A stretch of 64,000 bases of DNA from a virus. The position numbers and the translations under genes are program-made. The stretch covers positions 1 to 64,000 of IMG/VR virus record IMGVR_UViG_3300032288_003086, one strand, 5' to 3'. The notes below the pieces were generated by a model. That model was not told the DNA's origin. It did no database searches and was given only the letters and a program-made list of their open reading frames with translations. This document shows, piece by piece, positions 32,615-51,711 of this stretch (positions are counted from its first letter, which is position 1; every line of letters starts with the position of its first letter).

Positions 32615-33289
32615 ATGGTAACAAAAGTATCAGAGGCCATAAGTAGGGTCAGAAACCAGATAAAGTCAGTGACAGTCGATGCATTTGTCACTGATCGTTA
32701 TATCTATTCGCTTATCCTCAAACATATATCCTGGCTGATCAAACGCGAAGATGACAAGGGTATCTTACGTAAGTACAATAACATCTTTCATACCTTGGAT
32801 TACTTTCCATTGATAGATGTGGATAAAGCTGATGTGGGATGTTTCTGTATTACATCAGGATGTACAATCAAGCGTAGTCAGCATAAGATTCCTCCTACAT
32901 ATGATGGAAGCTATGGGCCAATTATCAGGTCTTTAACCAGCATCGATGGTACCACTCCACTGACTATGACATACCCTTCGACTTATCAGGCAATGATACG
33001 TCAGAAGACCTTTAAGTATAATAAGACTCCTTACTACTACATAGTAAATGATTACATCTATGTACCTAGTGTAGACTGGCCTGCTATCCGAGTAGAAGGA
33101 TTGTTTAGATCAGGGATAGGAGATTATAATTGTGATACTGAGCATGACTGCATTTATGTGCAGGATGAACCATTCTCTGTTCCCATGTACCTCTATGGGG
33201 AGATGGAGCAGAATGTCATGAAAGACCTGGCAACCAGTATCAGCATACCAGGTGATGTCAAACAAGACTTTGTAAGCAACACCAAATGA
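32615..33289 (+). CDS. Tail ring protein
   Basis: 224 aa with 'KYNKTPYYYIVNDYIY'. Synteny IHF-ring-ring-muzzle. Confidence 0.6.
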   Translation: MVTKVSEAISRVRNQIKSVTVDAFVTDRYIYSLILKHISWLIKREDDKGILRKYNNIFHTLDYFPLIDVDKADVGCFCITSGCTIKRSQHKIPPTYDGSYGPIIRSLTSIDGTTPLTMTYPSTYQAMIRQKTFKYNKTPYYYIVNDYIYVPSVDWPAIRVEGLFRSGIGDYNCDTEHDCIYVQDEPFSVPMYLYGEMEQNVMKDLATSISIPGDVKQDFVSNTK

Positions 33290-34413: not shown

Positions 34414-34419
34414 TAGATT

Positions 34420-37400
34420 ATGGCAAAGTCCACAAGCTCTTCATCTGGCACCACTGATCTCAATAGTGCAAAGAGTGCTACCTATGTAAAAGGTCTTATC
34501 AAGGATTATAACGACAGTTATGTTCCTGAAGGAGTGTGGATCAATGCTATCAATGCGGTTACTAACTCTCATAAGGGTGATGCTGGTACAATAGGTAATG
34601 AGCCTTCCAATAGATTTTGTGTAGAGGCTCCTTATACCATAATAGGTCTTGTGCGCAGGGACTCCAACACCTGGGTTGTTTTCTCTACCAATAATGTCAT
34701 ATCCGAGATAGGTTACTTTACAGAGTCTACTTGTGAATACATTAAGATCATAACAGATCAATGTTTAGGATTCAAAAAAGAATATCTGATCACAGGAGTT
34801 ATCCAGTACAATTTTGATTGCACATGGTCTGTGTTTTTTGCAGATGGATTGAATCCAGATAGGACAATCAATCTAGATAATCCTCCTTATCAGTATACAT
34901 GGGATAGGACCAATCCAAACTGTCCTATAAAAGTATTCAATGATTGTTTGGACTGTGAGCAGACCAGATTGAATTACCTGATGACACCTCCCTGCATCAA
35001 TGTAAAGAAAGCAGTGGGAGCGGGTTCGCTGTTCAATGGATCCTATCAAGCTGTTATTGCTTACAGCATAAATGGACAAAGAGTCAGTAATTACTTTAGT
35101 CCAAGTAATGTCTTAGGCATATGGGATCACACAGGTGTAGCTGGTGGTCTTGAGATAAGTATTGAAGACTTGGACACCAGGTTTGAGGAGTATGAGTTAG
35201 TGGTTGTAAGCAACATCAATAGCCAGAACTTTGCAAGGAAGATTGGTAATTACAGCACCAGTCAGTCTGTAGTATATCTTGATATATATTCTGAAAGTCT
35301 TCCATCCATACCATTGAGTATAATTCCACTAGTGGTTCCTGTATATGAAAAGTCTGACAAGATGTTTGCAGTAAACAACTATCTTCTCAGATCGGGCATA
35401 TACAGCAAGTATGAGTTCAATTACCAGCCATTAGCCAACAACATTGCAGCACATTGGCAGGAGGTGGAATATCCTTCTGACTACTATTACAATGGAGGAG
35501 CAAATACATCCTATATGAGGGATGAGCAGTATGCTTTTTTCATCAGATGGCTATACAATGATGGCGATAAATCAGCAAGTTACCATATACCAGGAAGGGT
35601 GGCAGATCCATCTGATCTAACTACAGTGAACAACTTGGATGTGTTATATCCTGATGACAACAAATACTGGCAGGTTTACAATACAGCCTCTGTCACTAAT
35701 CCTGTTGTAAACACTATTCTTCCAGATGGTGGTATAGTTACCAAAGAAGGCTTGATGGGTTATTGGGAATCCACTGAAAAATATCCTATTAATAGGCCTC
35801 AGGTATGGGGTGATCTTTGCGGGCTTCCTATTCGTCATCATAAGTTTCCAGACAACTGTGTTTCCCACATCCATAATCAAGGTGGAGACAAGATGTATAT
35901 ACTGGGTGTCAAGTTCTCAAACATCCAGCATCCTTTGGATAACAATGGAAACCCTATATTAAACATCATAGGGTATGAGATATTGCGAGGTAGCAGGGAA
36001 GGCAACAGAACTGTTATTGCCAAAGGTATGCTCAACAATATGCGTGAGTATACCAGTATTGGTGATCAAAAGGTATTATATCAGAACTATCCATATAATG
36101 ATCTTAATCCAGATTACTTCCTAAGGACATCCCTTGCCAATGACCAGGGTGAGTCTCCTGATGACAGCGGCAGTCCATTGTCAGTATACAAAACAGATTA
36201 CTACAGCTTCCATAGTCCTGAAACCAACTTTGCAAAACCCTTTCTTTCATTCAATGAGGTAAGGTTGTATTCCAAAGAATATGGAACAAGCAATGGAAGT
36301 TTTGAATATCCATTTGGGCATCCCAAGCATAAGCTAATAACCAACGCATCCTATATATTGGCTTTGACACTTGGTTTGTCAATAGGTCTTAAAGCTGCGT
36401 TTGGTCAAAGGAATGTAAAGGCTACTGCAGATTCTGCCACAGCTCTTCCTGCAGCATTGAGTACAATATCCAGTTATGGATTCTTTGGAGTCAATGGTTC
36501 TATGGCTGCAGCACTTTCATCTTATGTGGGAAGTGCTCCTATATCGATATCCTCAGGAAACTATGGTCAATTTGTAGGAGGTACTTCTACTGGTTCAGGG
36601 GGTGGTAACTGGGGAGGTGTAGAGTTTCCAACTTTGACAGAAACAGGAGGTGACCTTTCAAACCTTGACTTTAGGACATTCTTTCCTGGATATACGACCA
36701 AGGTTGGACAGTTTGCATTTGAGGCTTTGAAGTATTTAGCATTCCTGTCAACTATAAAATACTGGTCTGGACTTGGTCTTGATGCTGCATTGAATGTTAT
36801 ATATGAGCTTATACCTTTCAGACAGTATGCGCTTCAGTATAACTCACATGCCTTTTATGCAAACTACAAAACCATTTGTCCAAGCAATTCCGCAGGTGAT
36901 ATGCGTAGGGCACATCAAGACAGTGTTTACATAAGGGATCAGATACAAAGCTTTGATGCCACTTATAATGTAAACAACCTTTATAGGAACAACTATGTCT
37001 TGGTTAAGATAAAAGGTAATTTTCCTAATGTGTCTGCTACTGACTCTTCTATAAAGGACAATTCAAGGAAGCGCGTGAGAGACACAAGTCTCAGTTTCAC
37101 CAATCCTACAAATACCAATATTACCTCTACTACCTCTGCATACTATGGAGGATTGAAGGTGGATCTTGAAAACCAATATGGACAGCTTGAAGGAATCGTG
37201 CAGGTTCCTATAGGGATGTGTTATGAGGTTACTTCTGGAAAGCTTGAGAACAAAAGATATGAATCAACCACATTGTTTGGTGGTGATATCTATATCAACA
37301 GGTATACAGAAAAGAATCCTTTCTTCTTTTTTGTCAATTGGCTTTATGATGTACCTAATGGTACCGAGTTTGATTATAGTCAATACAGCAATATCCTTTA

Positions 37401-39246
37401 TCCAAGGTACTGGGGTAACTTTACTAGGTTTGATAGATCTAGTATAAAGTCACCTTTTGGATTTGGTGCTATAAAAGGATGGGAGTCTGATGATGATCCT
37501 TTATTGGGTTGGATTCTTGCTGCTAGTGCTTATCATCACTTAGACAGATCCAACGCTACTAACACATTCCTTGTTACCAAAGCATGGTTCTATCTGTTTT
37601 ATAATGGAGTAAGAGATTTCTTTATAGAGTCCGAGGTAAATCTGGCATATAGGGATTATGGTGATTTGACCAGTCAGCGCCACTATGATTATAAGAGTTA
37701 CACGGATATTCCCAGGATGTTCAGGACTGATATTATCCAGTCTGGGAACTATTACAAGTATGACTACTCCCTTTCAGTAAGTAAGCTTTTGAGTCAATAC
37801 AAGACTTTCTCAGCAATACTTCCTAGGTCTTATGATCCAGATGTGGCGGAAAGCTGTTATACATATGTATCAGGAAAAGTGCTTTATAGTCTTCAGCAGC
37901 AGTCTGAACAAGCTAGAGAATCCTGGAGAATATACCTTCCTAATAACTATAAGGACTTTGAGAATGATGTCACTGCTTTCAAACCTATCAATAGGACGGG
38001 TGCATTAATCCTATTCCAAGATGCTGAACCCACTAGTTTTACAGGTGTAGATCAACTTCAGACAGCAGCAGGTACTAAGATTACTATTGGTGATGGTGGT
38101 TTGTTTGCACAGCCTTTCCAATCTCTTGTAAATGCTGATGATGAGTATGAGTATGGCTCATGCCAGGATACAAGATCCGTGGTCAATACTCCATATGGTA
38201 CATTCTGGATGAGTCGTAACACAGGTAAGATCCTAAATTATACAGGTTCTGGTATTGTGGACATTGCCATGAATGGGATGCGTTACTGGTTTGCAGAACA
38301 TCTACCCAATGTCTTGACTACCCAGTATCCTGAGTTTCCATTTACAGAGAATACAGTGGTGGGCATAGGTTGTCAAGCTGTTTATGATACCCAGTATGAT
38401 ATCCTTTACTTTTCAAAAAGGGACTTTAAGTCCAACACTGAGTCTGTCAAGTATGATGTAGCTGGCAAGTATTGGTATGTTGAAAGGCAGGCTGGTAATG
38501 AGGTCATTGAGCTTGGTGACCCTAATTACTTTGAAGATTGCTCATGGACAATTAGTTATGATCCAAAGACCAAGATGTGGTTGAGTTTCCATGATTGGCA
38601 CCCTAATCATTCCTTTGGTGTAAATGACCACTTCTATACCATCAAGGATAAAGGTTTCTGGAAACACAATGATGTGTGCAACAGCTTCTGTAATTACTAC
38701 GGGGTGGAGTATCCTTTTGAGGTGGAGGTACCTATCAATACCATAGCGGCGATTACTACCATCAAAAGCGTGGAATATTACCTAGAGGTATTGAACTATT
38801 CCCAAGATTGTATTGATCCATATCATGTGCTAGATGCCAACTTTGACTATGCCATGATCTACAATACAGAGCAGAACTCAGGTCTTCTAAAGCTGAATCT
38901 CAAGCCTAGGAACCCTAACTATATGCTAAGCTATCCAATAGTCTTGTCAGACAGGATAGAGATCATGTTCTCCAAAGAAGAGAATAAGTATCGCTTCAAT
39001 CAGTTTTGGGATGCTACCAGGGATAGGGGCGAGTTCTCAGGAATCCAATACAGGATGTTCAATACTGAGCAGAATGGATATCGTAAAGTATTAAATCCTA
39101 CATTTATAGATTATAATAAATCACCTTTGCAGCGTAAAAAGTTCAGGCATTATGGCAACAGGTTGATTCTGGGTAGGGCAGTCTCCCAGAACCTGAAGTA
39201 TAACCTGAAGATTTCAAGTGTGAAGGAAACTTCTAGTCCACGATGA
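34420..39246 (+). CDS. Tail muzzle/stabilization protein (P22 gp10-like)
   Basis: 1608 aa with 'IGNEPSN', 'YMRDEQYAF', 'SYHIPGR', 'PIRHHKFPD', 'FGGDIYI', 'WTISYDP...WLSFHDW'. Position matches. Confidence 0.8.
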   Translation: MAKSTSSSSGTTDLNSAKSATYVKGLIKDYNDSYVPEGVWINAINAVTNSHKGDAGTIGNEPSNRFCVEAPYTIIGLVRRDSNTWVVFSTNNVISEIGYFTESTCEYIKIITDQCLGFKKEYLITGVIQYNFDCTWSVFFADGLNPDRTINLDNPPYQYTWDRTNPNCPIKVFNDCLDCEQTRLNYLMTPPCINVKKAVGAGSLFNGSYQAVIAYSINGQRVSNYFSPSNVLGIWDHTGVAGGLEISIEDLDTRFEEYELVVVSNINSQNFARKIGNYSTSQSVVYLDIYSESLPSIPLSIIPLVVPVYEKSDKMFAVNNYLLRSGIYSKYEFNYQPLANNIAAHWQEVEYPSDYYYNGGANTSYMRDEQYAFFIRWLYNDGDKSASYHIPGRVADPSDLTTVNNLDVLYPDDNKYWQVYNTASVTNPVVNTILPDGGIVTKEGLMGYWESTEKYPINRPQVWGDLCGLPIRHHKFPDNCVSHIHNQGGDKMYILGVKFSNIQHPLDNNGNPILNIIGYEILRGSREGNRTVIAKGMLNNMREYTSIGDQKVLYQNYPYNDLNPDYFLRTSLANDQGESPDDSGSPLSVYKTDYYSFHSPETNFAKPFLSFNEVRLYSKEYGTSNGSFEYPFGHPKHKLITNASYILALTLGLSIGLKAAFGQRNVKATADSATALPAALSTISSYGFFGVNGSMAAALSSYVGSAPISISSGNYGQFVGGTSTGSGGGNWGGVEFPTLTETGGDLSNLDFRTFFPGYTTKVGQFAFEALKYLAFLSTIKYWSGLGLDAALNVIYELIPFRQYALQYNSHAFYANYKTICPSNSAGDMRRAHQDSVYIRDQIQSFDATYNVNNLYRNNYVLVKIKGNFPNVSATDSSIKDNSRKRVRDTSLSFTNPTNTNITSTTSAYYGGLKVDLENQYGQLEGIVQVPIGMCYEVTSGKLENKRYESTTLFGGDIYINRYTEKNPFFFFVNWLYDVPNGTEFDYSQYSNILYPRYWGNFTRFDRSSIKSPFGFGAIKGWESDDDPLLGWILAASAYHHLDRSNATNTFLVTKAWFYLFYNGVRDFFIESEVNLAYRDYGDLTSQRHYDYKSYTDIPRMFRTDIIQSGNYYKYDYSLSVSKLLSQYKTFSAILPRSYDPDVAESCYTYVSGKVLYSLQQQSEQARESWRIYLPNNYKDFENDVTAFKPINRTGALILFQDAEPTSFTGVDQLQTAAGTKITIGDGGLFAQPFQSLVNADDEYEYGSCQDTRSVVNTPYGTFWMSRNTGKILNYTGSGIVDIAMNGMRYWFAEHLPNVLTTQYPEFPFTENTVVGIGCQAVYDTQYDILYFSKRDFKSNTESVKYDVAGKYWYVERQAGNEVIELGDPNYFEDCSWTISYDPKTKMWLSFHDWHPNHSFGVNDHFYTIKDKGFWKHNDVCNSFCNYYGVEYPFEVEVPINTIAAITTIKSVEYYLEVLNYSQDCIDPYHVLDANFDYAMIYNTEQNSGLLKLNLKPRNPNYMLSYPIVLSDRIEIMFSKEENKYRFNQFWDATRDRGEFSGIQYRMFNTEQNGYRKVLNPTFIDYNKSPLQRKKFRHYGNRLILGRAVSQNLKYNLKISSVKETSSPR

Positions 39247-42200
39247 AAACCGATAAGTTACTGCATGTGCTCACTAAGAATGCCCCTAATAGGTCAGGCA
39301 GAGCACTTCCTTTGGATAAATATCAGGATAAGTCCCAGGTTAAAAATTGGGAAAGAAATTTAATGAATGAAAGTCCAAGAAGAGCTGCTGACAAAGCAAA
39401 AGAGCTTGGTGTTGATGTTGGTGGGTATAACAATCTTGGAGATGCATACAGGCATGCTCTTACAAGTTATTATACTACGGATCAATATGGTCCTGTCCTT
39501 GCAAATCTCATGGGTATAGGTCATGAGGGATTGGGCATATATGATTATTTCACTAAGAACAAAAACAAAAGTTTAGGTACATTTTTAAAATTGCTAAAAG
39601 AATCAGGTAGTGACATCTACAATAATGCAGTAGGTTCTTTTGCTTCTGCTACAGAACCTCTTGCTGCGTTGGCAAATCCTGGTAATCCAAACATTAATAC
39701 AGAACATCTGAAAAATGTTTTAAGCAATGTTCATGTTCTTAATAAAGGTGAGACCTACCCTGCATCTGAACAAGTAAGGGATATGTTTCCAATGGACTTA
39801 CAAAGAACAAGACATCCTCAAGAGATTAAACGCTTTCAAGGTACTATTAAACGCTTTCAAGGTACTGAACAAAGTCAGACAGGAACTTCTTTGAAGAAAT
39901 CTGTTCCAAAAGATTTGGAGGAAAGATATAGTACTGTTCAATCTAGAATACAGGGGATAATTGATAATCCTCCTCAGACTAAGAATCCAGGCATGGCTCC
40001 TGAGGATGTAATGAAGTATATCAAGGATCGTTCTATAAGTACATTGATGGAGGAAAATCCTTCTTTGGGTACTGCATGTAAAGGTCCTTATTGTACTACT
40101 GCGGCCAGTACAGCATTTAGATTGACTTATCCTAATGCAGCTCCTCTTCCTACTACAGGTGGAAATACTTTTAGGGATCAGATATTGAATAATCCTGCAT
40201 TTGGGGTTACCTCAAATGATATTTATTCCAACCTGCATCCAGGATCATATCTTCAACAACAAACGCTTGAAGAGTATTATGAAGATGAAGAAGGAAATAC
40301 CAAGCAAAGATCCAAGCCTTCTTATCAGTCTCTTCATAACATGTATGTATATGATGTTGAAAAACTCTCCAATGGTAGAAAAAGAATACATACTGTGCAA
40401 AACACAGGGAATATGTATAATCCAGAATCAACGCAGATTACAAAGGAATATGATGTAGACAAGGAAGGTAATGTTTATAACAAGGATTCAGACTATATTG
40501 TAATTGAATCGGCTAGTGAGAATGCTAAAGACAGGCCTCTATTGGTATACTACAAGGATAATGACATATGGAGTAATCCTGAAATGAACAGCCTTTTGAA
40601 AGAAAGGGAAGGGGTCAAAAAACAAATTTTGGACATTGACTCTGATTATTTCACTCCTGAGAAACCTACCAGGTATGATGTTGATTACCAACCTGGTCAA
40701 TTTCTTCTTCCTGAAAGCTTCTCATCTGAACAAGGTAAGATGGTTTCTAACAAGGACGATAAGGAGTTTATTGATTTACGTGAAAGCAAAATTCCTGAAA
40801 TTGTAGATCAGGTCAATAATCCTGAGTACAAGAAGATGATCATGCGGGATTATAACATCAGTGACGCTGAGTATAACGCAATGGTTAAGACCATGATTGG
40901 TCAGTACATGATGGAATCCCAAGGAGGCACTGATTGGCAAAGTGGATTCAGGATTCCTGAAAATAAAGGTTTGGCTAAACTGTCCACTGCATTAGGTGCC
41001 GATCTTTCAAAAAAGAGTGTAGGTCCTTTCCAAATAAACTACAGTCAGCTTGGAGAAAAGACAAAAGAGATAATTCCAAAGCGAGGAGTCAGCAATAAGA
41101 GTAGGCAGGAGTTCATTGATTTCATGTATGATCCTGTAAAGTCATCAGATGTGGCAATGCGATATCTTGCTGAAAACATGAGGATGGTCAGGAATCTGGC
41201 AAATCAGGAAGGTGAAAGACAGAACATGACTCCTGCTAACTATGTTGACTATTTACCTTATGTAATGAACCAACAAGGTTGGCTTCGTAGAACAGATGAG
41301 GAAAGTCAATCAAAAAAAGGTTCTATCTTAGGAGAAGGCACTAATGCATATGTTCAAGGTGTAAGGGATTATGGGAATAAGATGTTGGAGTATATTCCAA
41401 TGTCGAGTGATACCATGATCACAAATCCACCTACTATTCGTCGCGATGGTGGACCTTTACCCAAGGCACAGACTGGTAGATCTGCAATGACTGATTCTAT
41501 CAATGAGAACTATATACCTTCTGTCAAAGAAAAGAAGAAAGATCAACAGTCTTTATGGGATAAATTAACTGATCCAAACATGAAAACCCCTATGTTGGAT
41601 CTTTTTATGAAAGGAGCTTTTTTTCTTCCTGTGTTTAATACGCCTGAGCTTCAAAATCCTAATGCTATTCAATATAATAAAACAGGCGGATCAAAGCTAC
41701 CATCCCATCTACCAGAAGCTTACAGGGATGGCGGTCCTTTACCCAAAGCTCAGTCTGGACTTTACTATAAAGACAAGACTGGAACGCTTAGGTTTAAGCA
41801 TAATAATCAACCTGTAGCTACAGGAAAAGCTGAGTCAACAGCTAGTCCAATAGAAGCAGCATTGGCAGTAGCAACTGGAGCACCTTTGATTCCAACAGCT
41901 TTGAGTTTTGGATCAAAGACTGTTGGCAAATCAGGAGCCCATCCTTTAGATCAAAGTTGGATGGGAATACCTATTCCTGTTGCACTAGGGACCTTTGCTA
42001 ATACTTTGCGAGAAACTTATGAAGATGTTTCAAAAGGTATTCAGGATTACAACGCTACTAACCAGAGAAAAGAGGGAGGATCATTACCCAAAGCTCAGGC
42101 TGGGCTTAATACACAAGGTGTCCAAAGACTTGTTCAAGAGGCACATGCTACTGCTGAGCAGAACAAAAGATTACAACAGGACCAACAAAACACTTGGGCT

Positions 42201-42743
42201 AAACGAGATGAGACTTCTGTAAATCCACAAAAGGTAAAAGGTAATACTCCATATGTTGTATCAGGCACGGAAGGCGTTTTAGATGCAGCAGATGTTGTTT
42301 CTGATCTCATGCAATATGGATATTTTGTACCTCATCCTATAGGTCAAAGTGTTGGACTTCTAGGTAGTGGTCTGGGATCAGTTATAGATTCATATCAAGC
42401 TGGTCAGCAATATGCTCTTGGTAATTATGATGCAATGGCTGCTAACTTGGCATCCGCAAGTTTATCTGGATTGCTGGCTTCCAAAGGTTATACAAGGGAT
42501 ATGTATAATACAGTTCCAGGTTCAATGGCTGATAGGATTGCAAGTCTTGGGTCTAGGTCAGGTACCTATAGACCATTGACAGCTTATCCTCATCTTCGAA
42601 ATAATCCTGTAATACGTCGTGGATTGAATTATAATCGAGGCGCTTTAGGAACATTGGGTGCTGAAACCATTTATGATCTTCCTGAACAAAAGCTAGGTGG
42701 ACCTACTAAAACATTGAAAGTCAGAATAAAAAAATCAAAATAA
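39243..42743 (+). CDS. Modular cargo protein 1 (toxin-like, peptidase-like, lytic-transglycosylase-like and hydrophobic modules)
   Basis: 1166 aa. Modules are separated by xxGG..LPKAQ linkers. Motifs DAYRH..GHE..DIYNNAVG, YC...H and MES...GPFQIN. Confidence 0.6.
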   Translation: MKTDKLLHVLTKNAPNRSGRALPLDKYQDKSQVKNWERNLMNESPRRAADKAKELGVDVGGYNNLGDAYRHALTSYYTTDQYGPVLANLMGIGHEGLGIYDYFTKNKNKSLGTFLKLLKESGSDIYNNAVGSFASATEPLAALANPGNPNINTEHLKNVLSNVHVLNKGETYPASEQVRDMFPMDLQRTRHPQEIKRFQGTIKRFQGTEQSQTGTSLKKSVPKDLEERYSTVQSRIQGIIDNPPQTKNPGMAPEDVMKYIKDRSISTLMEENPSLGTACKGPYCTTAASTAFRLTYPNAAPLPTTGGNTFRDQILNNPAFGVTSNDIYSNLHPGSYLQQQTLEEYYEDEEGNTKQRSKPSYQSLHNMYVYDVEKLSNGRKRIHTVQNTGNMYNPESTQITKEYDVDKEGNVYNKDSDYIVIESASENAKDRPLLVYYKDNDIWSNPEMNSLLKEREGVKKQILDIDSDYFTPEKPTRYDVDYQPGQFLLPESFSSEQGKMVSNKDDKEFIDLRESKIPEIVDQVNNPEYKKMIMRDYNISDAEYNAMVKTMIGQYMMESQGGTDWQSGFRIPENKGLAKLSTALGADLSKKSVGPFQINYSQLGEKTKEIIPKRGVSNKSRQEFIDFMYDPVKSSDVAMRYLAENMRMVRNLANQEGERQNMTPANYVDYLPYVMNQQGWLRRTDEESQSKKGSILGEGTNAYVQGVRDYGNKMLEYIPMSSDTMITNPPTIRRDGGPLPKAQTGRSAMTDSINENYIPSVKEKKKDQQSLWDKLTDPNMKTPMLDLFMKGAFFLPVFNTPELQNPNAIQYNKTGGSKLPSHLPEAYRDGGPLPKAQSGLYYKDKTGTLRFKHNNQPVATGKAESTASPIEAALAVATGAPLIPTALSFGSKTVGKSGAHPLDQSWMGIPIPVALGTFANTLRETYEDVSKGIQDYNATNQRKEGGSLPKAQAGLNTQGVQRLVQEAHATAEQNKRLQQDQQNTWAKRDETSVNPQKVKGNTPYVVSGTEGVLDAADVVSDLMQYGYFVPHPIGQSVGLLGSGLGSVIDSYQAGQQYALGNYDAMAANLASASLSGLLASKGYTRDMYNTVPGSMADRIASLGSRSGTYRPLTAYPHLRNNPVIRRGLNYNRGALGTLGAETIYDLPEQKLGGPTKTLKVRIKKSK
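39825..39866 (+). repeat. Perfect 21-bp tandem duplication (IKRFQGT x2)
   Basis: ATTAAACGCTTTCAAGGTACT occurs twice, in frame. Confidence 0.95.
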
Positions 42744-42744
42744 G

Positions 42745-45567
42745 ATGGCACAGAAGAAAATGAAGGATATCTTTACACATGAGATGGGTCAGATCCTATT
42801 TCCAGGTCAACCCACAGTAATTGAGTCTAAGAAGATATCTCCAGGCACAGATATAACTATGAAGAACACAAGACCCCAAATAGCCCTGACACCATATGGT
42901 GCTACACAGATGAGTCCTAACCAGAACTATTCCTTTGCTGGAAACACAGTAGTGGAGTTGCCTATGGCTCAAATGGGTGCACAAGCTGGTGGAGATGATC
43001 AACAGGCTCAGATCATGCAGATCATACAGATGTATGCCCAGATAAAGGGTGTAGATCCTAATCAATTGATCCAGGAGATCCAAGCTCTTCCTCAAGAAGA
43101 ACAGCAGAAGTCTTTTGAGCTTATGGCATCTGAGGTTCAGAATGCAATGGCTCAGCAGCAACAAGCTGCCCAGCAAGAGCAGCCTGGTGGTATGCCTATG
43201 GCTGGCAAGGGTGGAATAATGGATGCATATCCACAAGCCCAAAACTTAGAGTGGTTTTATAAAACTGCCAAGAATGGAGGATTGCTCAAAGCTCAAGATG
43301 TAGGAAACATAAATCTTTACAATCGAGTATTGTCAGATCGTAAGAACTTTATGTCTGGTCCTGAGGCAGCATGGAAAGCTGATCCAGCTTTAGTAAATGA
43401 AGATGGTTCTTTGAACATGTGTCTTGATTGCACAAATGTGGATTATAGTAATCAACAAGATGTCATTGACGCATCGAGACTTATCAATGAAGGTGTAAGT
43501 AAGGTACCTGAGTATAGCCTTAATGATCTTCAAACCGCATTGAAGAAATTTGATCTTCCAATGCCTGTTTATAATTCTGCCAAAACCAGAGAAAACATTA
43601 TAAATCAGGATCCTTCTTTAAAGAAGCAGCGTGCGGGTGGAGGATTATCAATACATCAACTCCGCGGGGTTGTTGACTCCATGGTCAAAGATGCTGTTCA
43701 GCGCTATATGACTGGTGGTGAAGCATTCCCTCAAGCCAATAAGTATCCAGAAGAATGGGCTGGTTATTCAGGTACCATGTATGCCCAAGGGGGGGAAGCC
43801 TTCCCACAAGCTCAGACATATCTTCCTTATGACAGGCCAGGTGAAACCAGACCTAATTTTATGTTTGCCCAAGGAGGCTCTAAGGATGAGTTTGGAGGGC
43901 AGCCAGATCTGGATACAATCTATAGGATGATGAGAAGCGGTGGCCTTGCGGTTAACGCCAAAAAAAAAAGGGGGGAGGAGCTAAGTTCTGAGGAATTTCA
44001 GCAATACCTCAGCGGCGGTTCTCTAAAAGAGTTCCAAGGTATCAATCAAAGTACTACAGGTTATAGTGGTTATAACAATGACCCACGATTTGATTATCCT
44101 GATGATACTACAGCAAATGCAACTACAAACGTAGCAGCTGGTAATACTATGACCAATGCTAGTGCTAGTGCACCTGCGGTATTGACAGCAAATGCTTCTA
44201 CTGCACCTGCAGGATATTCTTGGTCTACTGGTGCTACTAGCACAACTGCAGTACCTACTATAAAGACTGCAGACCAAGGTGCTTATAAGGGTGAGCTTAG
44301 TGCAAATAAGATAGTCAACCGTAATGAGACAGTTAGTCCAAAAGGTGGTTATTCAACTACAATACCAGCTCGTCCAGGTATTCCACCAGCAATGTATCTA
44401 AATGCAATAAACACTGCAACAGGTGGTAAGAGTAGTCTATTGGGACTTTTTGGTAATGTAGCTTCTTTGGTGGGAGACTTTGCAAGTTCTAATCAACCAG
44501 GTAGTAAAGAATCAATAGCAAATCCATATGTAGGTCTTTTTGAGCAATTTCAAAATAAAGTTCCATACTCAGTAGAGCCTGCACCTGGAACCATTGGTCC
44601 TCCTCCTACTGCAAAGAAAGGTGGTCGTAAGAAGTCATTACCAAAAGCTCAGTTTCAAATGCCGCAGCTTTCAGGTGTGGATCCTAATATAGCAGCTCAG
44701 ATTGCACAAAACAGGGGGATGACTCAAGTCCAGGGTTCAGGTATGTCATTTAATGAACCTCTTCAACCTATGAATCCTATTACCCAGATCCCTTCTCCTC
44801 AAGTAGATATGCAACCCATTGGAGCATCTGCGATGTCTCAAATGAACTTAGGTCTGCAAATGCCTGGGGAAGGTCCAATTGCGGATGAGATGTCTATACC
44901 TAAAGCATCAGAAGCATACAACCCAGATGGACCAATGAGCATGGCTCCTATGAGAAGTATTGGTAGTATAACTCCTAGCACTCCTGCTCCACAGATGCAG
45001 CCTCAAATGAGTTCACAAGACTTAGGTCCTGCAGGACTTACCAATAGACAGATTCGTCAAGAAGATAGAAGCAACAGACGCGAGCTTAAGCAGGATTGGA
45101 AGGACTTTAAACAGACTGATGAGTACAAGAATGCTAGTAAGCAGCAGAGAAAAGACTTCTGGTCAGACCCCAATGCTCGCTTTGATCATGCCAAAGCTGC
45201 AAGGATGGTGGGTGCAACCCAGGGTATAGCTGACTTCTTTAGAACTGGTAATCAAGAGTATATGGAAGATCAGTTGAAGAAGATGGGTGTGAATACTTCT
45301 GCTACCATGGGTGTAAGTCAAAATAGAGATCGTGGAGACTTTGCAACCAATAGTGGAAAGTTCAGACCTAATGAATATGTAGAAGCTCAGGATTCTGGAC
45401 GAAGCATGACAGACCAGACTTCCTTCTACAATACCTTCAATCAAATGTACAATGCAAAGCTAGGAGGAAGAATCCTGGACTTTCTTGAGGATGGAGGGGT
45501 CTATGACCTGGATGAGGATACCATCAGACTCATCATGGAAGCAGGCGGCTCAGTGGAGTTTATTTGA
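42745..45567 (+). CDS. Modular, largely disordered cargo protein 2
   Basis: 940 aa, Q/M/P/G-rich, with about ten xxGG motifs and PQAQ/PKAQ repeats. Confidence 0.55.
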   Translation: MAQKKMKDIFTHEMGQILFPGQPTVIESKKISPGTDITMKNTRPQIALTPYGATQMSPNQNYSFAGNTVVELPMAQMGAQAGGDDQQAQIMQIIQMYAQIKGVDPNQLIQEIQALPQEEQQKSFELMASEVQNAMAQQQQAAQQEQPGGMPMAGKGGIMDAYPQAQNLEWFYKTAKNGGLLKAQDVGNINLYNRVLSDRKNFMSGPEAAWKADPALVNEDGSLNMCLDCTNVDYSNQQDVIDASRLINEGVSKVPEYSLNDLQTALKKFDLPMPVYNSAKTRENIINQDPSLKKQRAGGGLSIHQLRGVVDSMVKDAVQRYMTGGEAFPQANKYPEEWAGYSGTMYAQGGEAFPQAQTYLPYDRPGETRPNFMFAQGGSKDEFGGQPDLDTIYRMMRSGGLAVNAKKKRGEELSSEEFQQYLSGGSLKEFQGINQSTTGYSGYNNDPRFDYPDDTTANATTNVAAGNTMTNASASAPAVLTANASTAPAGYSWSTGATSTTAVPTIKTADQGAYKGELSANKIVNRNETVSPKGGYSTTIPARPGIPPAMYLNAINTATGGKSSLLGLFGNVASLVGDFASSNQPGSKESIANPYVGLFEQFQNKVPYSVEPAPGTIGPPPTAKKGGRKKSLPKAQFQMPQLSGVDPNIAAQIAQNRGMTQVQGSGMSFNEPLQPMNPITQIPSPQVDMQPIGASAMSQMNLGLQMPGEGPIADEMSIPKASEAYNPDGPMSMAPMRSIGSITPSTPAPQMQPQMSSQDLGPAGLTNRQIRQEDRSNRRELKQDWKDFKQTDEYKNASKQQRKDFWSDPNARFDHAKAARMVGATQGIADFFRTGNQEYMEDQLKKMGVNTSATMGVSQNRDRGDFATNSGKFRPNEYVEAQDSGRSMTDQTSFYNTFNQMYNAKLGGRILDFLEDGGVYDLDEDTIRLIMEAGGSVEFI
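43960..43975 (+). repeat. A10G6 homopolymer tract
   Basis: Read directly. It is the longest A-run I noticed in coding sequence. Confidence 0.9.
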
Positions 45568-45634
45568 TATCTTCACGAAAATTTGTTAAATTTAAGTAGG
45601 TGGTTTTCAATAAGAAAATAAATCTCAAAAGTTT

Positions 45635-48600
45635 ATGAACGTCAAGGTAAATAGAGTTCGCGGGGGTAGCATGGGCGACCAGCGCAACTATGGTTTGGTA
45701 ACAGGCAGCATCTGGAACTATGAGGATAAGCCATCCACAAACGAAGTCTCTGATACACTAGGGGCTGTGGACAGGGATCAAGCAACCATAGAAGCTGAGC
45801 GTGGGGAGACTGTTATATATCCAGACAAGGATGGACAGATTACCCATGCCAAGATTGGTGGTAAAAGACATACTCATGGAGGAACCCCATTGGATATTCC
45901 AGATGGAGCTTTTGTCTTTTCAGACACTAGGGCTCTATTGATCAAGAACAAGGAGTTGCTTAAGAACATCTTTGGTATGAACAGCAAGAAGGCTGTGACT
46001 CCTGCCAAGGTTGCCCAGCGATATGACCTGAATCAGTACAATGAGATATTGAATGATCCTGAGTCTGACTTCTTATCTAAGAAGACTGCGCAGCTCATGC
46101 TTGACAACAACATGAAAAAGCTGGGGCAATTGGCTTTGGTACAAGAAGGCATGAAAGGATTCCCTGATGGTATTCCAGACATTGCTCTTCCTCTTTTTGG
46201 TAGTGACATTGCAGTGGCTCAGCCTATGCAAGAGATGCCACAAGCCAAGTTTGGTGGACAGATCATGAGAAGGGGTGGAAAGAAACTTCCAAAACATCAA
46301 GATTATGGTGAAGTATTTTCATCTGAATCAGGTTATAGGCTTCCTGAAGTATTAGTAGAAGAATTTTATCCTGAATGGCAGCAATATATCCAAAGAGGAT
46401 TAGTAGATCCTAATGCCCTTCCAGATGAAGATGAAAGTATCAAGCGACAGCAAGTTGCTAATGCTATTAAGATCTATAACGATGCTTTGAAAAGTGGAGA
46501 TGTAAAAGCTATGAAAAATGCATCTGACGCTCTTTTTAAGATGGATATTGAAGGCTTCTCAACTCCTGGTCCATGGCTTTCTAAAGGATGGAAGAATTTT
46601 CAACAAGGTCTTGGGAACTTAATGTTTGATGTTGTATCACCTGTTTTTAAAGAGTTTAACACACCTTTAGAAGATATTCCTGCTACGGACATGTATATAA
46701 ATATGAGGGGAGCTGCACAACGAGCTGAAAGAGCATTGGCACAAAGAGCTCCTTCTGGAGCATGGACTTGGCAAGATAAAATATATGAGATGGGTCGCAT
46801 GCTTGAAAATTTTATTGAAGACAAAGAGAAGATGTCAGCAACTTCTTCTAATGCGAAAAATTTACTACCTAAGATAGAAGAGTATGGTAAAAAGAAAGAT
46901 GAAGTAGTTTCAAAAGCTGAGGAAATACTTAAAAATCCTGAAGCATATTCTCCAGATTTAGTATATAAAGCTGGAGAGTTTATCAGTGAATATAAAGGTG
47001 AAGATTTTTGGCGTGGGCTTTTGAGAGATGAAAAGTCCTTTTTTGAAGCACCACTTAAACCAGCAGAAAATTTAAATCTACATCAACTTAATCCAGAAAC
47101 TTGGAACAGTCTGTATAGCAAGCCAGTTGGTATAATAAAAAAAGCATATGACGATCTTGTAGATACTAAGGCTATTAAAACAGAACAACAAAGACAAGAA
47201 CAAGAAAATGCAGGAACTCAATCTAATAAAGAAAGTCTTAATCAATGGATTAGTGGTATTAAAAGTGGTAAATATTCTGTAAATGAAGTACCTCGAGATC
47301 TTCTACCTGATCTTGAAGCAGCAGGTATTGATATATCTGGTGCTGGCAACCCTGCTCCTACTCGTAGTAGTTCTTCTTCCCGATCTACTCAACAGCGCGC
47401 AACAACTGCTCCTTCTAAAACTGAAGAGTCTGATGAAACAATTAGGCAGAGACTTATAAGTATTGGTATTGATCCAAATGATATTACTCCTGAGATGATA
47501 CAGCAGAATAAATATGCTAAAGGAGGAATGACATATGTATATGATCCTACGAACAATATAATGCTTGATAAGTATCAGACTAAAGGAGGTGTAAAGGCAT
47601 TTAATATCTATGATAAGAATTTTAGGGACTATGCTAATCAGAATAAGTTAAAGTTAGTTCTACCTAGTTGGGCTACAGGTATGATGAGCATTGGTGAACA
47701 AAATCCTTCAAAAGATCCAAGATTTAAAAAATCTGCTACAGGAGAGATTATACCAAGCGCGGGTATCAGTGGATATACAGGTCCTGATGATCTTATCAAA
47801 TGGCATAAGAGTCAAGGAATGGACTTCTCCAAGTATGTAGATGCTGATGGTAACACTGCCAAGGATGAGACAGATGGCATGACCAAGTTTAAAAATGACT
47901 TAAAGACTTGGGATAACAGTGGTAAGAAACACAGGCATGCTACTTCATGGATGCTTGGCAAGGTTGATGAAATCAATACTGAAAGAGCTACCAAGCTTGG
48001 GTTAGCCGCTCCTCCTAGTCAAACTGATAAAGGTACAACAGGATGGGATGTCACAGGATTTGATGTACTTACAGGAACAAAGTATCTTGCTCCTGAAGAT
48101 ACGCCTGTTGATGATGTACCACCTGTACAACCTCCTGTTGAAACACCTCCTGTTAATACTCCTCCAGCTGATGTTCCTACTCCAAAATATACAGCTGGCT
48201 ATCCAGGAGGCTGGACTGACTACAGTACATTGAATCTTGCTACAGCAATGGGGATGGCGAACCAAGTTGAGCCAGGTGCCCTTCCTCCTTTTACTCAAGC
48301 ATTCCCTGACTTAGGTCGTCCTGTGTTTATGGATCCTAGAGCCAATATCATGAATCAACTTGCACTGCAGAATCAGCAAGCTGAGATGATTGCGGGTATG
48401 TCTAGTCCTACTGTGGGTAGAGCAAACATCATTGCCAGTGCTGCAAAAACAGCTGAGCCAATCAGTGACATCATGGCCAAGTATGACCAGGCTAATGCCA
48501 CTATTGCAAACACCTATGAAGGACAGCGTGCTGCAATAAGCAATCAAGCACAGATGACAAGTGCTGCCAAGCGTGAAGAGTTCCAGGATGAGCTTGCTGT

Positions 48601-48940
48601 CCGCAGACAGAATTACTTGAATGCGTTAAAAGAATCTCAAGCCAATGTGGCTTATCAATATGAGCGTGGGGCAAAAGACTTCAGGGAAAAGAATGCCTTG
48701 AATGTACAAAACCCTAACTACATGTTTGATAACTATGGCAATATCATGTTCAAGCCTGGTTACAATCCAAATGCAACAGCAAGTAGTTCGGCAGATGATT
48801 TACTTGATAACTATATCAATAAAGGCATAGATCCTAACAAGGCAGCTGCTCTTGTTGCTGCACAGATGAAGTTGAATGACAATGCTTTCAATTATGACCC
48901 TATGTCTACGGTTTGGGGTTCTCAAAAACCAGTTAGTTAA
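45635..48940 (+). CDS. Cargo protein 3 (crAss-like conserved ejected protein with inserted modules)
   Basis: N-terminal 'EAERGE...GKRHTHGG...VFSD' resembles the conserved crAss-like cargo domain. GG/LPKHQ and GG/LDKYQ linkers. Coiled-coil C-terminus. Confidence 0.6.
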   Translation: MNVKVNRVRGGSMGDQRNYGLVTGSIWNYEDKPSTNEVSDTLGAVDRDQATIEAERGETVIYPDKDGQITHAKIGGKRHTHGGTPLDIPDGAFVFSDTRALLIKNKELLKNIFGMNSKKAVTPAKVAQRYDLNQYNEILNDPESDFLSKKTAQLMLDNNMKKLGQLALVQEGMKGFPDGIPDIALPLFGSDIAVAQPMQEMPQAKFGGQIMRRGGKKLPKHQDYGEVFSSESGYRLPEVLVEEFYPEWQQYIQRGLVDPNALPDEDESIKRQQVANAIKIYNDALKSGDVKAMKNASDALFKMDIEGFSTPGPWLSKGWKNFQQGLGNLMFDVVSPVFKEFNTPLEDIPATDMYINMRGAAQRAERALAQRAPSGAWTWQDKIYEMGRMLENFIEDKEKMSATSSNAKNLLPKIEEYGKKKDEVVSKAEEILKNPEAYSPDLVYKAGEFISEYKGEDFWRGLLRDEKSFFEAPLKPAENLNLHQLNPETWNSLYSKPVGIIKKAYDDLVDTKAIKTEQQRQEQENAGTQSNKESLNQWISGIKSGKYSVNEVPRDLLPDLEAAGIDISGAGNPAPTRSSSSSRSTQQRATTAPSKTEESDETIRQRLISIGIDPNDITPEMIQQNKYAKGGMTYVYDPTNNIMLDKYQTKGGVKAFNIYDKNFRDYANQNKLKLVLPSWATGMMSIGEQNPSKDPRFKKSATGEIIPSAGISGYTGPDDLIKWHKSQGMDFSKYVDADGNTAKDETDGMTKFKNDLKTWDNSGKKHRHATSWMLGKVDEINTERATKLGLAAPPSQTDKGTTGWDVTGFDVLTGTKYLAPEDTPVDDVPPVQPPVETPPVNTPPADVPTPKYTAGYPGGWTDYSTLNLATAMGMANQVEPGALPPFTQAFPDLGRPVFMDPRANIMNQLALQNQQAEMIAGMSSPTVGRANIIASAAKTAEPISDIMAKYDQANATIANTYEGQRAAISNQAQMTSAAKREEFQDELAVRRQNYLNALKESQANVAYQYERGAKDFREKNALNVQNPNYMFDNYGNIMFKPGYNPNATASSSADDLLDNYINKGIDPNKAAALVAAQMKLNDNAFNYDPMSTVWGSQKPVS

Positions 48941-51711
48941 TGGCAACATATCTTAAAGGTGTAACGGATGTAATCCCTAAGCAACCAGAAGTCAAGTTAG
49001 ATTACGACCTGCTTTCCAAATCTCTTACTGCACTTCAAGGAAGATATGACAGTGCATATAAGAGTTGGAAGTCCATGTATAATTCTCTGCTTAGTGCAGA
49101 GCTTTCATCTACTGACAACGAGCAGTTTAGGGCTGACTACATGAAAAAGGCAGATGCTGCACTTAGTCAGGTCGCAGGCATTGATCTTGCCAATGGTGCA
49201 AACCTTCAGCAAGCGATGACCATCTTTGATCCTCTTGTGAATGACCAAGAGTATGTCAGAGACCTGTATCTGACCAAGACCCAGCGCCAGCAGTTTACAA
49301 AGATGAATCAGTTCAAGAACAGCACTGATCCCAAGCTACAAGCCCAGTACAATCCTATAATGGAGCAATACATGGGTATAGGTATGCAGCGTCTTTCTGA
49401 GATGAAAAGGGGTAATGGTTCCATAGAAAATGCTACTGTGAACATGTTCAGTCCTTGGCAGGATCCTTTAGAGTATGCTAGGACTACTGCAAAAGACCAA
49501 GGTCTTGAGATTAAAACCAACACTCCTAATGGAGAATGGTTAGTCACTGAAGTAAATGGTGGTAAAACTGTTGATACCTATAGGAATTGGTTTAAGAATA
49601 CCATAGGCAGTAAGTTTGACAATCAATTCAGGATTGAGGCGGAAGTTGATACAGAGAATGCCATCAGATCCAAAATGGCTGAAACCAAATTGGACAGGGG
49701 CACTGTGATGCAACAAATGGCGCAGGAGTACTCTACAACATATGTCAAGGATTACAACGATGACATGTCTTCTTTGGAATCCCAAATTAACAACCTGAAT
49801 TCCCAAAGGAAGAAGTTAGAGAAAAGGTATCCCAATCCTAGCCAGCAAGTTGTTGATCAGAACAATGCCATGAAGCAGCAGAAGGATATTCTTCAAAAGC
49901 AGCTTGATGACATGCGTACTGGAAAGGTGGATGATGCTCAGCTTCAAAAGAAGGCTTCTGACATATTCATGAGCAGTCCTTCAAGTGTGTATGTAGGACA
50001 GGTAAGGAACAGGTATGCTGACAGGTTTGCCTACAACCAGGCATATGGTAAGATGGAGCTCAAGTATGAGCCTAACCAGATTTGGATGCATAAAAGCAGC
50101 CAAGCTTTCCAAAGAGCCATGCAGGAAGATCAGCAGCAATTTACTGCTGAGCAGAACAAGCTTAAAGCACAGTGGGATTACAATCTTTCCCTTGCCAAGG
50201 GTGAGCTAAAAGGTACAGGTGCAGGCATTGGTCAAAAGACAGATGTGGGTGTACTGGGTGCATATGAGACTTACAGTAGGACTATCTCAGAGAACTTTAC
50301 TAAAAGCACCAATGCGTATATCAATGATAAGGTTCTAGCAGTAGCTGCTAACATAAAAATTGATAAAAATGGCACTGTAAAAACAGATGCAAATGAACCA
50401 GACATGCAGGTTGTACAATCTGCAATGGAAGCAAAAGCATCAGGTAAGGCATTGACAGGAGCTCAAAGTGTAGCTCTTACCAGATATTTCAATATGGTAT
50501 CTCCTAACTCTAGGATAAATCCCAATGCTGTAACTTTTACAGAAATGCAGAGCATGATTACCAATGCTATTCGCACTAATTCCAAACTGAATCCTGAGTA
50601 TGGTGCTGCTGCATGGACTAGTGTTAATGAAGCAAATCTTGCTAGACAGCAATACGAAAAGATGTTTGACAGTGAAACCAAGCATCTTGCAACCATCACT
50701 GATCCAGAGCTTACCAAGTTTATAAAAACAGATGCTTCAGGTAACAAGTCTGTTAATGTGGCTGCGGTAAATGCCCTTGATGAAGAAGACAGGGAAGTTA
50801 CTTATAGGGCACTGATGGGTGGCAACTATGATGCTTATGCCAAGAAAGGCGCTACACAGGCTAATACCATTGTGCTTAATCCTTTGGATGTAAGTAAGTT
50901 TGATTATTCTATTTTAAGTTCTGCAATCAATAATGCTGAACAAATAGGATACACTGATCCTACTTCAGGTAGTTTTATAAAACTGGATGAGACGGCGACT
51001 GCAGCGTTTAGAAGTCAAACATCAGGTGGTCAAAACATGAAACAAGCCTTTGATCCAAAAGGTACCATGTATGAGCGCAAGATTGTCAATGGTCAAGAAT
51101 ACATTAAAGTGACCATTCCTCTTCTGAGAACTTCTGGAGAAACCTCCACATCTATTGCCAAACAGTTCGGATATTTGAGTCAGGAGATGACTGCACAAAA
51201 CAAAGTTGAAATGTTAGTGCCTCTTGGAAAGGCTGATAATCTTGGCGGAGTCAAGGATATGAATATCAATCCTTACACTGGAGGACTGATGGGTGAACAG
51301 CAGTATCTTGGAGACATGATCAATGATCTTGCAGGCAGGTCACTTGTTGATGACAACACGAGTTGGGTTAGCGAAGGTCTTATGAATTCCAACAATGTGA
51401 CTTTTCCAGACTATCTCAAAGGTTCTGTTGAAAATGGAAATCTCAGTATAACTGGCAATGAGATAAGTTTGCAGATTCTAAATGATGATGGCATAAAACA
51501 AAATGTTAATCTTACTCAAGTCCTAGGTATTACGGCTAGTCAATTGAGAGCTGATCCTACGTCATATGATTTTAAACTAAGACAGACTGTTGAAAATTCT
51601 GTCTACAACTTACAAAGGGCAGCAATGTCTTCTTCACATAATGCCATAAATGAAAACAGGATGTCTGCTGGCTCTTCTGGAAGTAATTTTTGGAGCAGTA
51701 ATCCATTTTAA
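48940..51711 (+). CDS. Large ejected (ejectosome) protein
   Basis: 923 aa, helical/coiled-coil. First of three giant genes ending in the vRNAP, as in phi14:2-like phages. Confidence 0.55.
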   Translation: MATYLKGVTDVIPKQPEVKLDYDLLSKSLTALQGRYDSAYKSWKSMYNSLLSAELSSTDNEQFRADYMKKADAALSQVAGIDLANGANLQQAMTIFDPLVNDQEYVRDLYLTKTQRQQFTKMNQFKNSTDPKLQAQYNPIMEQYMGIGMQRLSEMKRGNGSIENATVNMFSPWQDPLEYARTTAKDQGLEIKTNTPNGEWLVTEVNGGKTVDTYRNWFKNTIGSKFDNQFRIEAEVDTENAIRSKMAETKLDRGTVMQQMAQEYSTTYVKDYNDDMSSLESQINNLNSQRKKLEKRYPNPSQQVVDQNNAMKQQKDILQKQLDDMRTGKVDDAQLQKKASDIFMSSPSSVYVGQVRNRYADRFAYNQAYGKMELKYEPNQIWMHKSSQAFQRAMQEDQQQFTAEQNKLKAQWDYNLSLAKGELKGTGAGIGQKTDVGVLGAYETYSRTISENFTKSTNAYINDKVLAVAANIKIDKNGTVKTDANEPDMQVVQSAMEAKASGKALTGAQSVALTRYFNMVSPNSRINPNAVTFTEMQSMITNAIRTNSKLNPEYGAAAWTSVNEANLARQQYEKMFDSETKHLATITDPELTKFIKTDASGNKSVNVAAVNALDEEDREVTYRALMGGNYDAYAKKGATQANTIVLNPLDVSKFDYSILSSAINNAEQIGYTDPTSGSFIKLDETATAAFRSQTSGGQNMKQAFDPKGTMYERKIVNGQEYIKVTIPLLRTSGETSTSIAKQFGYLSQEMTAQNKVEMLVPLGKADNLGGVKDMNINPYTGGLMGEQQYLGDMINDLAGRSLVDDNTSWVSEGLMNSNNVTFPDYLKGSVENGNLSITGNEISLQILNDDGIKQNVNLTQVLGITASQLRADPTSYDFKLRQTVENSVYNLQRAAMSSSHNAINENRMSAGSSGSNFWSSNPF

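Follow-up and report, generated by a model that had tools for sequence, protein, structure and literature searches.

A recurrent junction peptide and matched protein ends in the probable virion cargo genes of an environmental crAss-like phage

The DNA analysed here is the first 64 kb (64,000 nucleotides, referred to as the window) of IMG/VR virus record IMGVR_UViG_3300032288_003086, which is 124,086 bp long and has direct terminal repeats. Three consecutive genes of the window, designated A, B and C, carry repeated copies of a short peptide, here termed the junction peptide, and this peptide and the ends of the proteins that bear it are the subject of this report. Pfam searches recognised a crassvirus major capsid protein, ring proteins 2 and 1 (R2 and R1) and a muzzle protein in the window, with CrAss_Ring_2, CrAss_Ring_1 and crAss_MUZ lying at 32615-39246 on the same strand as A, B and C, which follow. 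The muzzle gene (34420..39246, plus strand; crAss_MUZ, PF25731, E=1.1e-22) marks the start of the block and is succeeded by six large plus-strand genes, namely A (39243..42743, 1166 amino acids), B (42745..45567, 940 amino acids), C (45635..48940, 1101 amino acids), D (48940-51711), E (51714-56576) and F (from 56583). No Pfam or PHROGs family could be assigned to A, B or C, and megablast and tblastn searches with A, C and another C-type domain against 50,697 phage records returned no matches. The three genes occupy the position at which crAss001 has its virion cargo genes, gp45 and gp46, and, as in the Crassvirales cargo block, they lie downstream of R2, R1 and the muzzle gene on the same strand. 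A, B and C are probably virion cargo (ejection) proteins of an environmental crAss-like phage, judging from gene position and sequence, and we infer that they reside in the virion.

The consensus of the junction peptide is an aromatic or basic residue, two variable residues, Gly-Gly, zero to four further residues, L-P-K-[A/H/Y]-Q, one variable residue and Gly. A six-frame translation of the window yielded seven matches to its core, L[PD]K[AYFH]Q, and all seven are in frame within A, B or C; 2000 residue shuffles of these three proteins gave a mean of 0.01 and a maximum of 1. In the same comparison, a relaxed form of the LPKAQ half (Q-half) occurred 12 times (0.27 in shuffles), the full bipartite motif, defined as GG, 0-6 residues and the Q-half, 8 times (0.01 in shuffles) and the GG-half, [AYFMQRK]xxGG, 23 times (7.8 in shuffles, maximum 19). 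The muzzle protein, D, E and F, which together comprise 6623 amino acids, contained no core, Q-half or full bipartite match and 12 GG-halves. A single loose match, MDKFQ, was seen on the minus strand at 19475 in a frame full of stops, and small open reading frames (ORFs) near the capsid gene of the window carried neither the motif nor the end pieces described below. These results bear on an earlier note on this DNA, which had been made from the letters alone. Its 14 example peptides were all found where it had placed them, 47578 being the end of a second LDKYQ that starts at 47564, and the frequency of the motif, which it had named as a point on which its proposal could fail, was far above that in shuffles and flanking genes. 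Its count of more than 15 bipartite copies was too high, as the figures for full copies and half-motifs given above demonstrate, and its remark that the bipartite motif was not seen in flanking genes holds for the Q-half, of which the muzzle, D, E and F proteins have no copy, but not for the GG-half.

Gene A, delimited as an ORF with its translation, has eight mosaic homologues, each with different pieces of it. The protein begins with a 28-residue N-terminal leader ending in LPLDKYQ (39306..39326; this and all features of A, B and C below are on the plus strand). The leader recurs with LPLPKYQ in the related protein P0007, and leaders similar to that of A occur in the first cargo genes of relatives. 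A tandem IKRFQGT IKRFQGT (39825..39866) is followed directly by a conserved block, amino acids 209-732 (39867..41438), in which BLAST blocks start at 200-209 and end at 730-739. Within this block lies a lytic-transglycosylase-like pattern, ES...GPFQI; the SLT family (PF01464) matched at amino acids ~592-651 of A with E=0.011 and 15.7 bits, under its gathering cut-off of 21.3, and DUF6973 gave a sub-threshold match (E=0.0036) to a piece of A. A papain-like or NlpC/P60 domain, guessed from a Cys...His pattern, was dropped because it had no Pfam support (no NLPC_P60 match), and sequence searches of the PDB with A, B, C and a profile of the conserved block of A yielded nothing below E=0.17. The earlier note had described several of the segments between motifs as looking like enzyme, toxin or membrane domains; with no Pfam or PHROGs family in any of the three proteins and sub-threshold matches to pieces of A only, this description was not borne out. 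The motif scan located three junctions in the remainder of A, RRDGGPLPKAQTG (41439..41477), YRDGGPLPKAQSG (41721..41759) and RKEGGSLPKAQAG (42066..42104), the last of which precedes a conserved, Gly-rich C-terminal block that sits near the N-terminus in P0009 and P0010. The protein closes with an end piece, QKLGG...LKVRIKKSK (42687..42740), composed of GG and a basic strand, and P0007 has the same ending. The C-terminus of crAss001 gp45, GGKVRTKKKKGLTYG, likewise has GG and then a basic strand at its very end.

The product of gene B is mostly low-complexity and has several junctions. A small N-terminal module ends in ELPMAQMG (42955..42978), and both the module and its ending are also present in P0011. 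The motif scan then placed AKNGGLLKAQ at 43267..43296, YLSGGSLKEFQG at 44005..44040 and AKKGGRKKSLPKAQ at 44611..44652, and two GGEAFPQA(N/Q) variants of the junction, YMTGGEAFPQAN and YAQGGEAFPQAQ, stand at 43705..43815 as a pair that is also found in P0005. Sequence alignment defined an acidic C-terminal tail of B, AKLGG...GGVYDLDEDTIRLIMEAGGSVEFI (45454..45564).

Gene C, also delimited as an ORF, has 1590 representative relatives at E<=0.001. Its protein starts with a basic N-terminal strand of the MKIRIT type, MNVKVNRVRGG (45635..45667), and continues with a predicted folded domain, residues 33-190 (45731..46204), directly after which the motif scan placed a junction, AKFGGQIMRRGGKKLPKHQ (46244..46300). 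A second junction, YAKGG...LDKYQTKGG (47513..47590), lies further downstream, and the C-terminal part, amino acids ~835-1101 (48137..48937), forms a conserved block in which high-scoring segment pairs (HSPs) start at 790-899 and end at 1030-1099. An AlphaFold2 run on residues 1-235 of C with 19 relatives predicted the folded domain at a predicted local distance difference test score (pLDDT) of 64-93, mostly >83, with a predicted template modelling score (pTM) of 0.64, while residues 1-32, outside the modelled domain, and 191-235, including the junction at 204-222, had a pLDDT <50. In an alignment of C with 31 relatives, whose overall identity was 25-40%, G214 was invariant and G215, G630 and G631 were nearly invariant.

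The distribution of the motif was then followed in related loci. Single-protein locus searches in viral contigs returned nothing, and an alignment query was used instead, which gave 112 places in viral contigs, 80 of which were kept as related loci; these are mutually related and include some near-duplicates, so that the counts below do not represent independent events. The gene order of muzzle, one to three variable ORFs, C, D, E and F recurs across the 80 loci. In their plus-strand ORFs of at least 100 amino acids the strict motif occurred 95 times, with 26 matches in C-type proteins, 9 in A- or B-type proteins and the other 60 in ORFs without similarity to any query protein from the window. 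It was absent from the muzzle proteins (48,662 amino acids), D (65,609), E (78,506), F, R1 and minus-strand ORFs (36,478) of these loci, and in a per-locus listing of ORFs of at least 150 amino acids all motif-bearing ORFs lay between muzzle and D. Among 68 distinct instances, L, K (65/68) and Q were fixed, P was present in 51 and G two residues past Q in 35. The GG-half was found 8.65 times per 1000 amino acids in the variable cargo ORFs and 5.33 times in C, as against 0.24-1.89 in muzzle, D, E, F and R1.

Many cargo proteins also have parts of the junction peptide near their natural ends. The LPKAQ half lies 10-34 residues from many N-termini (MKIRITGKGLPKAQ), and GG occurs in the last 45 amino acids of 125 of the 144 variable cargo proteins, compared with 0/42 muzzle, 10/60 D and 3/46 E proteins. 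Among the 149 C relatives listed (of the 1590 representatives), a strict form of the motif was present 62 times; its typical forms are (R/K)(Y/F)GG-x-LPK(A/H/Y)Q-x-G near residue 210-230 and, where it opens the protein, MKIRITKKGLPKAQ. Other modules of the relatives matched DUF5872 and DUF5754 over the cut-offs and PG_binding_1 and Amidase_6 below theirs. Cargo proteins of ~600 amino acids in several relatives (L026, L030, L033, L035 and others) contain SDHNxGDALDI...HVHVSF, which we take to resemble a LAS/VanY-type cell-wall metallopeptidase. No paper describing the junction peptide, or the matched end pair presented below, was found among those searched.

Breaks in similarity between cargo proteins are enriched near the junction peptide. 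The eight homologues of A share blocks of ~200-735 and ~950-1150 that end at the junctions at 733-745 and 942-954, and no relative was found for positions 20-180 and 760-900. In C, the ends of 346 HSPs from 230 relatives pile up at 180-240, round the junction at 204-222, past which HSP coverage drops from 226 to about 10. When 215 cargo proteins were compared all against all, 3527 internal similarity break points were scored, of which 20.0% lay within 5 amino acids of a junction motif (8.4% for random positions) and 30.9% within 10 (14.3% for random positions), and the median distance from break point to motif was 32 amino acids (59 for random positions). Modules have therefore been exchanged at the motif, in whose neighbourhood similarity breaks are roughly twice as frequent as at random positions; exchange is enriched at the joints and not exclusive to them. 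The proposal of the earlier note that the motif marks module boundaries is upheld by these results, both in A and C and across the clade. The C-type module itself changes position, being at the protein start in 114 and internal in 32 of 146 representative relatives. The ten motif copies in the window differ at synonymous sites, with a longest common run of 15 bases between two copies in A, which indicates selection on the peptide rather than on the DNA, and a DNA-level recombination signal was for this reason rejected as the main cause of the pattern.

The relatives with an internal C-type domain allow fused joints to be compared with split ones. In 25 of 32 such representative relatives the fused joint reads x-x-GG, four to eight residues, MKIRIT. 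Where two genes encode the chain, an acidic tail of 25-30 residues, GG...EY(D/E)L(T/S)xEEIxxILxxGGE(V/I)E(F/Y)(L/I)-stop, terminates the upstream protein, and the protein after it starts with MK(I/V)R(I/V)(T/K). With the first form of the tail pattern, both ends were present at 60 of 316 distinct gene boundaries and neither at 242; a further 2 had the tail alone and 12 the basic start alone. Of these 12 boundaries, nine proved to have tails missed by this pattern, and a widened pattern found both ends at 69 of 311 distinct boundaries. At the 69 paired boundaries the mean net charge was -4.83 for the last 25 residues and +4.00 for the first 12 residues of the next protein, compared with +1.31 and -0.32 for the corresponding end and start at the other 242. 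The tail was present in 0/25 of the fused junctions, all of which (25/25) had GG within 20 amino acids upstream. By the strict pattern the acidic tail was terminal in 35 of 36 distinct instances and internal in 1; by a loose pattern it was internal in 14 of 62, mostly in D-type or unrelated ORFs.

The window has a single pair of tail and basic start, formed by the C-terminus of B (45454-45564) and the N-terminus of C (45635-45667). On visual comparison, the segment of B before the tail (...RGDFATNSGKFRPNE...) resembles the module found ahead of the C-type domain in relatives with a fused joint, and B and C accordingly look like a split version of one gp45-like protein. In an AlphaFold2 model of L026 (586 amino acids), which has both ends, the prediction has a strand at residues 2-7 and, in the tail, a strand (565-567), a helix (570-578) and a second strand (582-585), with a block pLDDT of 63-74 for the tail. 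The acidic tail may bind the basic start of the next protein. A second kind of matched ends was observed in L016, L019, L031, L057, L076, L080 and L081, in which ...GG(x)NWL(D/N)(N/K)Y... is followed by MK(A/T/S)(Q/E)FLKIAGV...EKEFY.KYP. In addition, the D-type proteins of related loci nearly all start with MATFIKGVTD or MAQYLPYIP..., and the C-type proteins that precede them often end in GG and an aromatic and acidic tip (e.g. ...GGVVFDFGALPLYFFED), which may be another end pair.

The position of C invites comparison with gp45 of crAss001. Both gp45 and gp46 were detected in crAss001 virions, where, according to the structural study, residues 214-245 of gp45 line the tail barrel and residues 425-552 lie on the portal, the authors treating gp45 as one chain through the portal (Bayfield et al. 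2023, PMC10172136). A structure search of 48,161 chains with C residues 65-205 returned as its best match residues 435-552 of 7qog chain M, the portal-bound domain of gp45; the match is weak (Z 5.5, root-mean-square deviation 3.6 A, 93 of 126 residues aligned, 20% identity). It was given weight because gp45 is the protein expected from gene position and because a language-model feature search (Atlas) with C independently listed a crAss_CARG1 cluster, at rank 6 with a score of 0.92. Foldseek found no match to the C domain in the PDB at E<=0.001. The crAss_CARG1 (PF25725) hidden Markov model (HMM) had no match in the whole genome at E<=10, and hhalign of the C-domain alignment against gp45 gave a probability of 0.2. 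For D, crAss_CARGO2 (PF25712, gp46) was considered and had no match in the genome at E<=10, and an HMM of 59 D sequences against gp46 was non-significant (E=1.4). Judging from the modelled domain, C is probably a very distant counterpart of gp45 (C1) and not a member of the Pfam family PF25725.

Like C, gp45 is a long, mostly unstructured protein with one folded domain, and its gene comes right after the muzzle gene. It carries [AF][YF]xGG at 209, 263, 332, 427 and 562. These GG sites immediately precede the barrel-bound helix, coincide with the start of the ordered residues in the portal-bound domain and directly follow the end of this domain, and the ordered parts of gp45 begin at or just after AYGG and AFGG. 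It differs in having no sequence or profile match to C and no LPKAQ half; furthermore, what corresponds to it here is distributed over A, B and C, contains far more modules and includes a split joint at the boundary of B and C.

We hold with moderate confidence that the junction peptide is an uncut, flexible hinge and, in addition, an element of a cargo thread that serves for recognition or docking. Each of A, B and C is a string of exchangeable modules joined by one conserved junction peptide; on this reading the joint would remain uncut as a hinge between modules that are stored and then threaded through portal and tail. The same peptide would be recognised, or docked, during cargo loading. 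Where the chain is split into genes, the covalent joint would be replaced by matched ends, an acidic strand-helix-strand tail on one protein and a basic MKIRIT-type strand on the next. This replacement at the splits suggests that the cargo proteins may act as a single thread, arranged head to tail in the order of their genes, in which the N-terminal domain of C would provide the anchor at the portal. An uncut joint is favoured because its Lys and Gln are fixed, because it survives at natural protein ends, because a matched clasp appears where the chain is broken and because no protease was found in the searches described below.

Another account, which we consider unlikely, is that the peptide is a mere flexible linker without a specific partner, kept by descent and as a set of in-frame recombination points; the swapping of modules would then be all that follows from it. 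The enrichment of break points at the motif would be expected of such a linker, as would its Gly- and Pro-rich composition, its low confidence in the model of C and the stretch of up to 15 identical bases common to two copies in A. However, a passive linker would need no fixed Lys and Gln, and L, K and Q, with P and the trailing G in many instances, are retained in very different contexts, in relatives that are only 25-40% identical overall and among copies that differ at synonymous sites.

About equally improbable is that the peptide is a proteolytic maturation site. Polyproteins would be cleaved either at GG or behind LPKAQ, while still in the capsid or once ejected, whereby modules would be freed and short N-terminal leaders removed, much as with the internal proteins of T4 and the inner-body proteins of phiKZ. 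It would suit a cutting site that the 8-12-residue peptide recurs many times, both between modules and at 10-34 residues from N-termini, that copies fall in stretches modelled with low confidence and that genes have undergone fission exactly at joints, as expected if separate products work. On the other side, no protease family was found in the genome. Pfam detected no peptidase in the 36 ORFs of the window that were scanned (29 upstream ORFs, the muzzle gene and A-F), nor in the 47 longest among the 69 ORFs elsewhere in the genome that reach 90 amino acids or more, and six-frame searches of the whole record for Peptidase_C39, C48, S78 and NLPC_P60 found nothing at E<=1. Moreover, the LPKAQ and GG halves are kept at natural termini, where no cut is needed, and split joints gain a matched acidic tail that fused ones do not have, which argues that linkage matters. 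For crAss001 virions, gel bands from 15 to >300 kDa, including 150, 270 and >300 kDa, are given by Shkoporov et al. 2018; the three large bands, compared here by size and not by protein, would fit uncut large cargo. The accessible text of Bayfield et al. 2023 (PMC10172136) has no word starting with "cleav" or "proteoly", and our literature search found nothing on proteolytic Crassvirales virion cargo. Nothing observed demonstrates that the junction peptide is cut, and the processing site proposed in the earlier note is unsupported; the packaging or ejection tag that it named as the alternative may be a role of the peptide. As for a chance or compositional artefact of low-complexity proteins, the Gly-rich, low-complexity nature of B and the 12 GG-halves in flanking proteins speak for it, but it is refuted by 7 core matches against 0.01 in shuffles, by 95 matches in related loci with none in muzzle, D, E, F or R1, and by the invariant or nearly invariant glycines (G214, G215, G630 and G631) in 31 relatives of C, and has practically no chance of being correct.

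Several observations weigh against the uncut hinge and docking element. Just 20-31% of break points lie within 5-10 amino acids of a motif. The joint could still be cleaved by a protease of the host or by one of the phage that was not recognised as such. The homology of C and gp45 rests on a weak structural match whose Z of 5.5 falls short of the 7-8 that the best chance matches typically reach, and BLASTP, three HMMs, hhalign and two Pfam families against gp45 and gp46 were all non-significant. The L026 model is poor overall (mean pLDDT 45.6). Lastly, adjacent ends are co-inherited and the 80 loci are related, so that the co-occurrence statistics for tail and basic start overstate independence.

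A more far-reaching version of the cargo thread is possible, although rather unlikely. It would be an ordered thread held together by junction peptides within proteins and by clasps of acidic tail and basic strand between them, the junction being read by the portal or tail channel at loading and ejection, or else cut in the host, with payloads swapped at the standard joints.

Comparable elements are known from other systems. In phage T4 the capsid targeting sequence and cleavage by gp21, and in phiKZ the processing of inner-body proteins by gp175, are cases in which short peptides on packaged internal proteins direct loading and/or are cut, and N-terminal leaders of 10-30 residues are a common feature. 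Those phages encode a prohead protease and their cleavage is established; the searches made here returned no protease, and the motif is different. The docking domains of modular polyketide synthases and nonribosomal peptide synthetases are matched C- and N-terminal end pieces on consecutive proteins that are fused in some relatives. They belong to another system and have other sequences, and the pairing of ends proposed here is deduced from sequence patterns. A further parallel is found in the polyvalent proteins of phages and conjugative elements (Iyer, Burroughs, Anand, de Souza and Aravind 2017, PMC5512222). These are large multi-module proteins encoded in the midst of late genes and proposed to enter the particle and be delivered together with the DNA, with extensive mosaicism and cell-wall enzymes among their modules. 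They differ in that autoproteolysis by peptidase domains was proposed for them and none was found here, and in that no effector domain was identified in A, B or C, where SLT and DUF6973 matched below threshold only. Neither "linker" nor "crass" occurs in the accessible text of the same article.

Other features of the genome were noted alongside the cargo block. The structural genes include one for a ferritin-like protein (9907-10473, plus strand; Pfam Ferritin, E=4e-21), and a 682-amino-acid protein just 3' of the capsid gene (5397-7445, plus strand) has collagen triple-helix repeats (E=1.5e-14) and may be a head fibre. In the tail module, directly 5' of the genes for R2 and R1, the plus strand encodes a phage lysozyme at 32082-32612 (PF00959, E=1.2e-44). 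Beyond the window, a 2270-amino-acid ORF after F (68234-75043, plus strand) has a PD-(D/E)XK nuclease domain (E=1.3e-5) and may be another giant cargo protein, and a DUF1287 match (E=5.8e-66) lies at 95381-95992 on the minus strand in the region of replication genes.

How podovirus-like phages load megadaltons of protein in the capsid and eject it through the tail before the DNA is an unsolved problem, and in crassviruses only fragments of one cargo protein have been seen so far. The clade described here offers two sequence handles on it, a standard joint peptide confined to the cargo genes and matched ends exactly where the chain is broken. If the joints are signals for loading or ejection, this would explain the free swapping of cell-wall enzymes and other payloads, and the joints could serve to load foreign proteins into particles. 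An ordered thread, if true, would amount to a programmable protein-delivery line.

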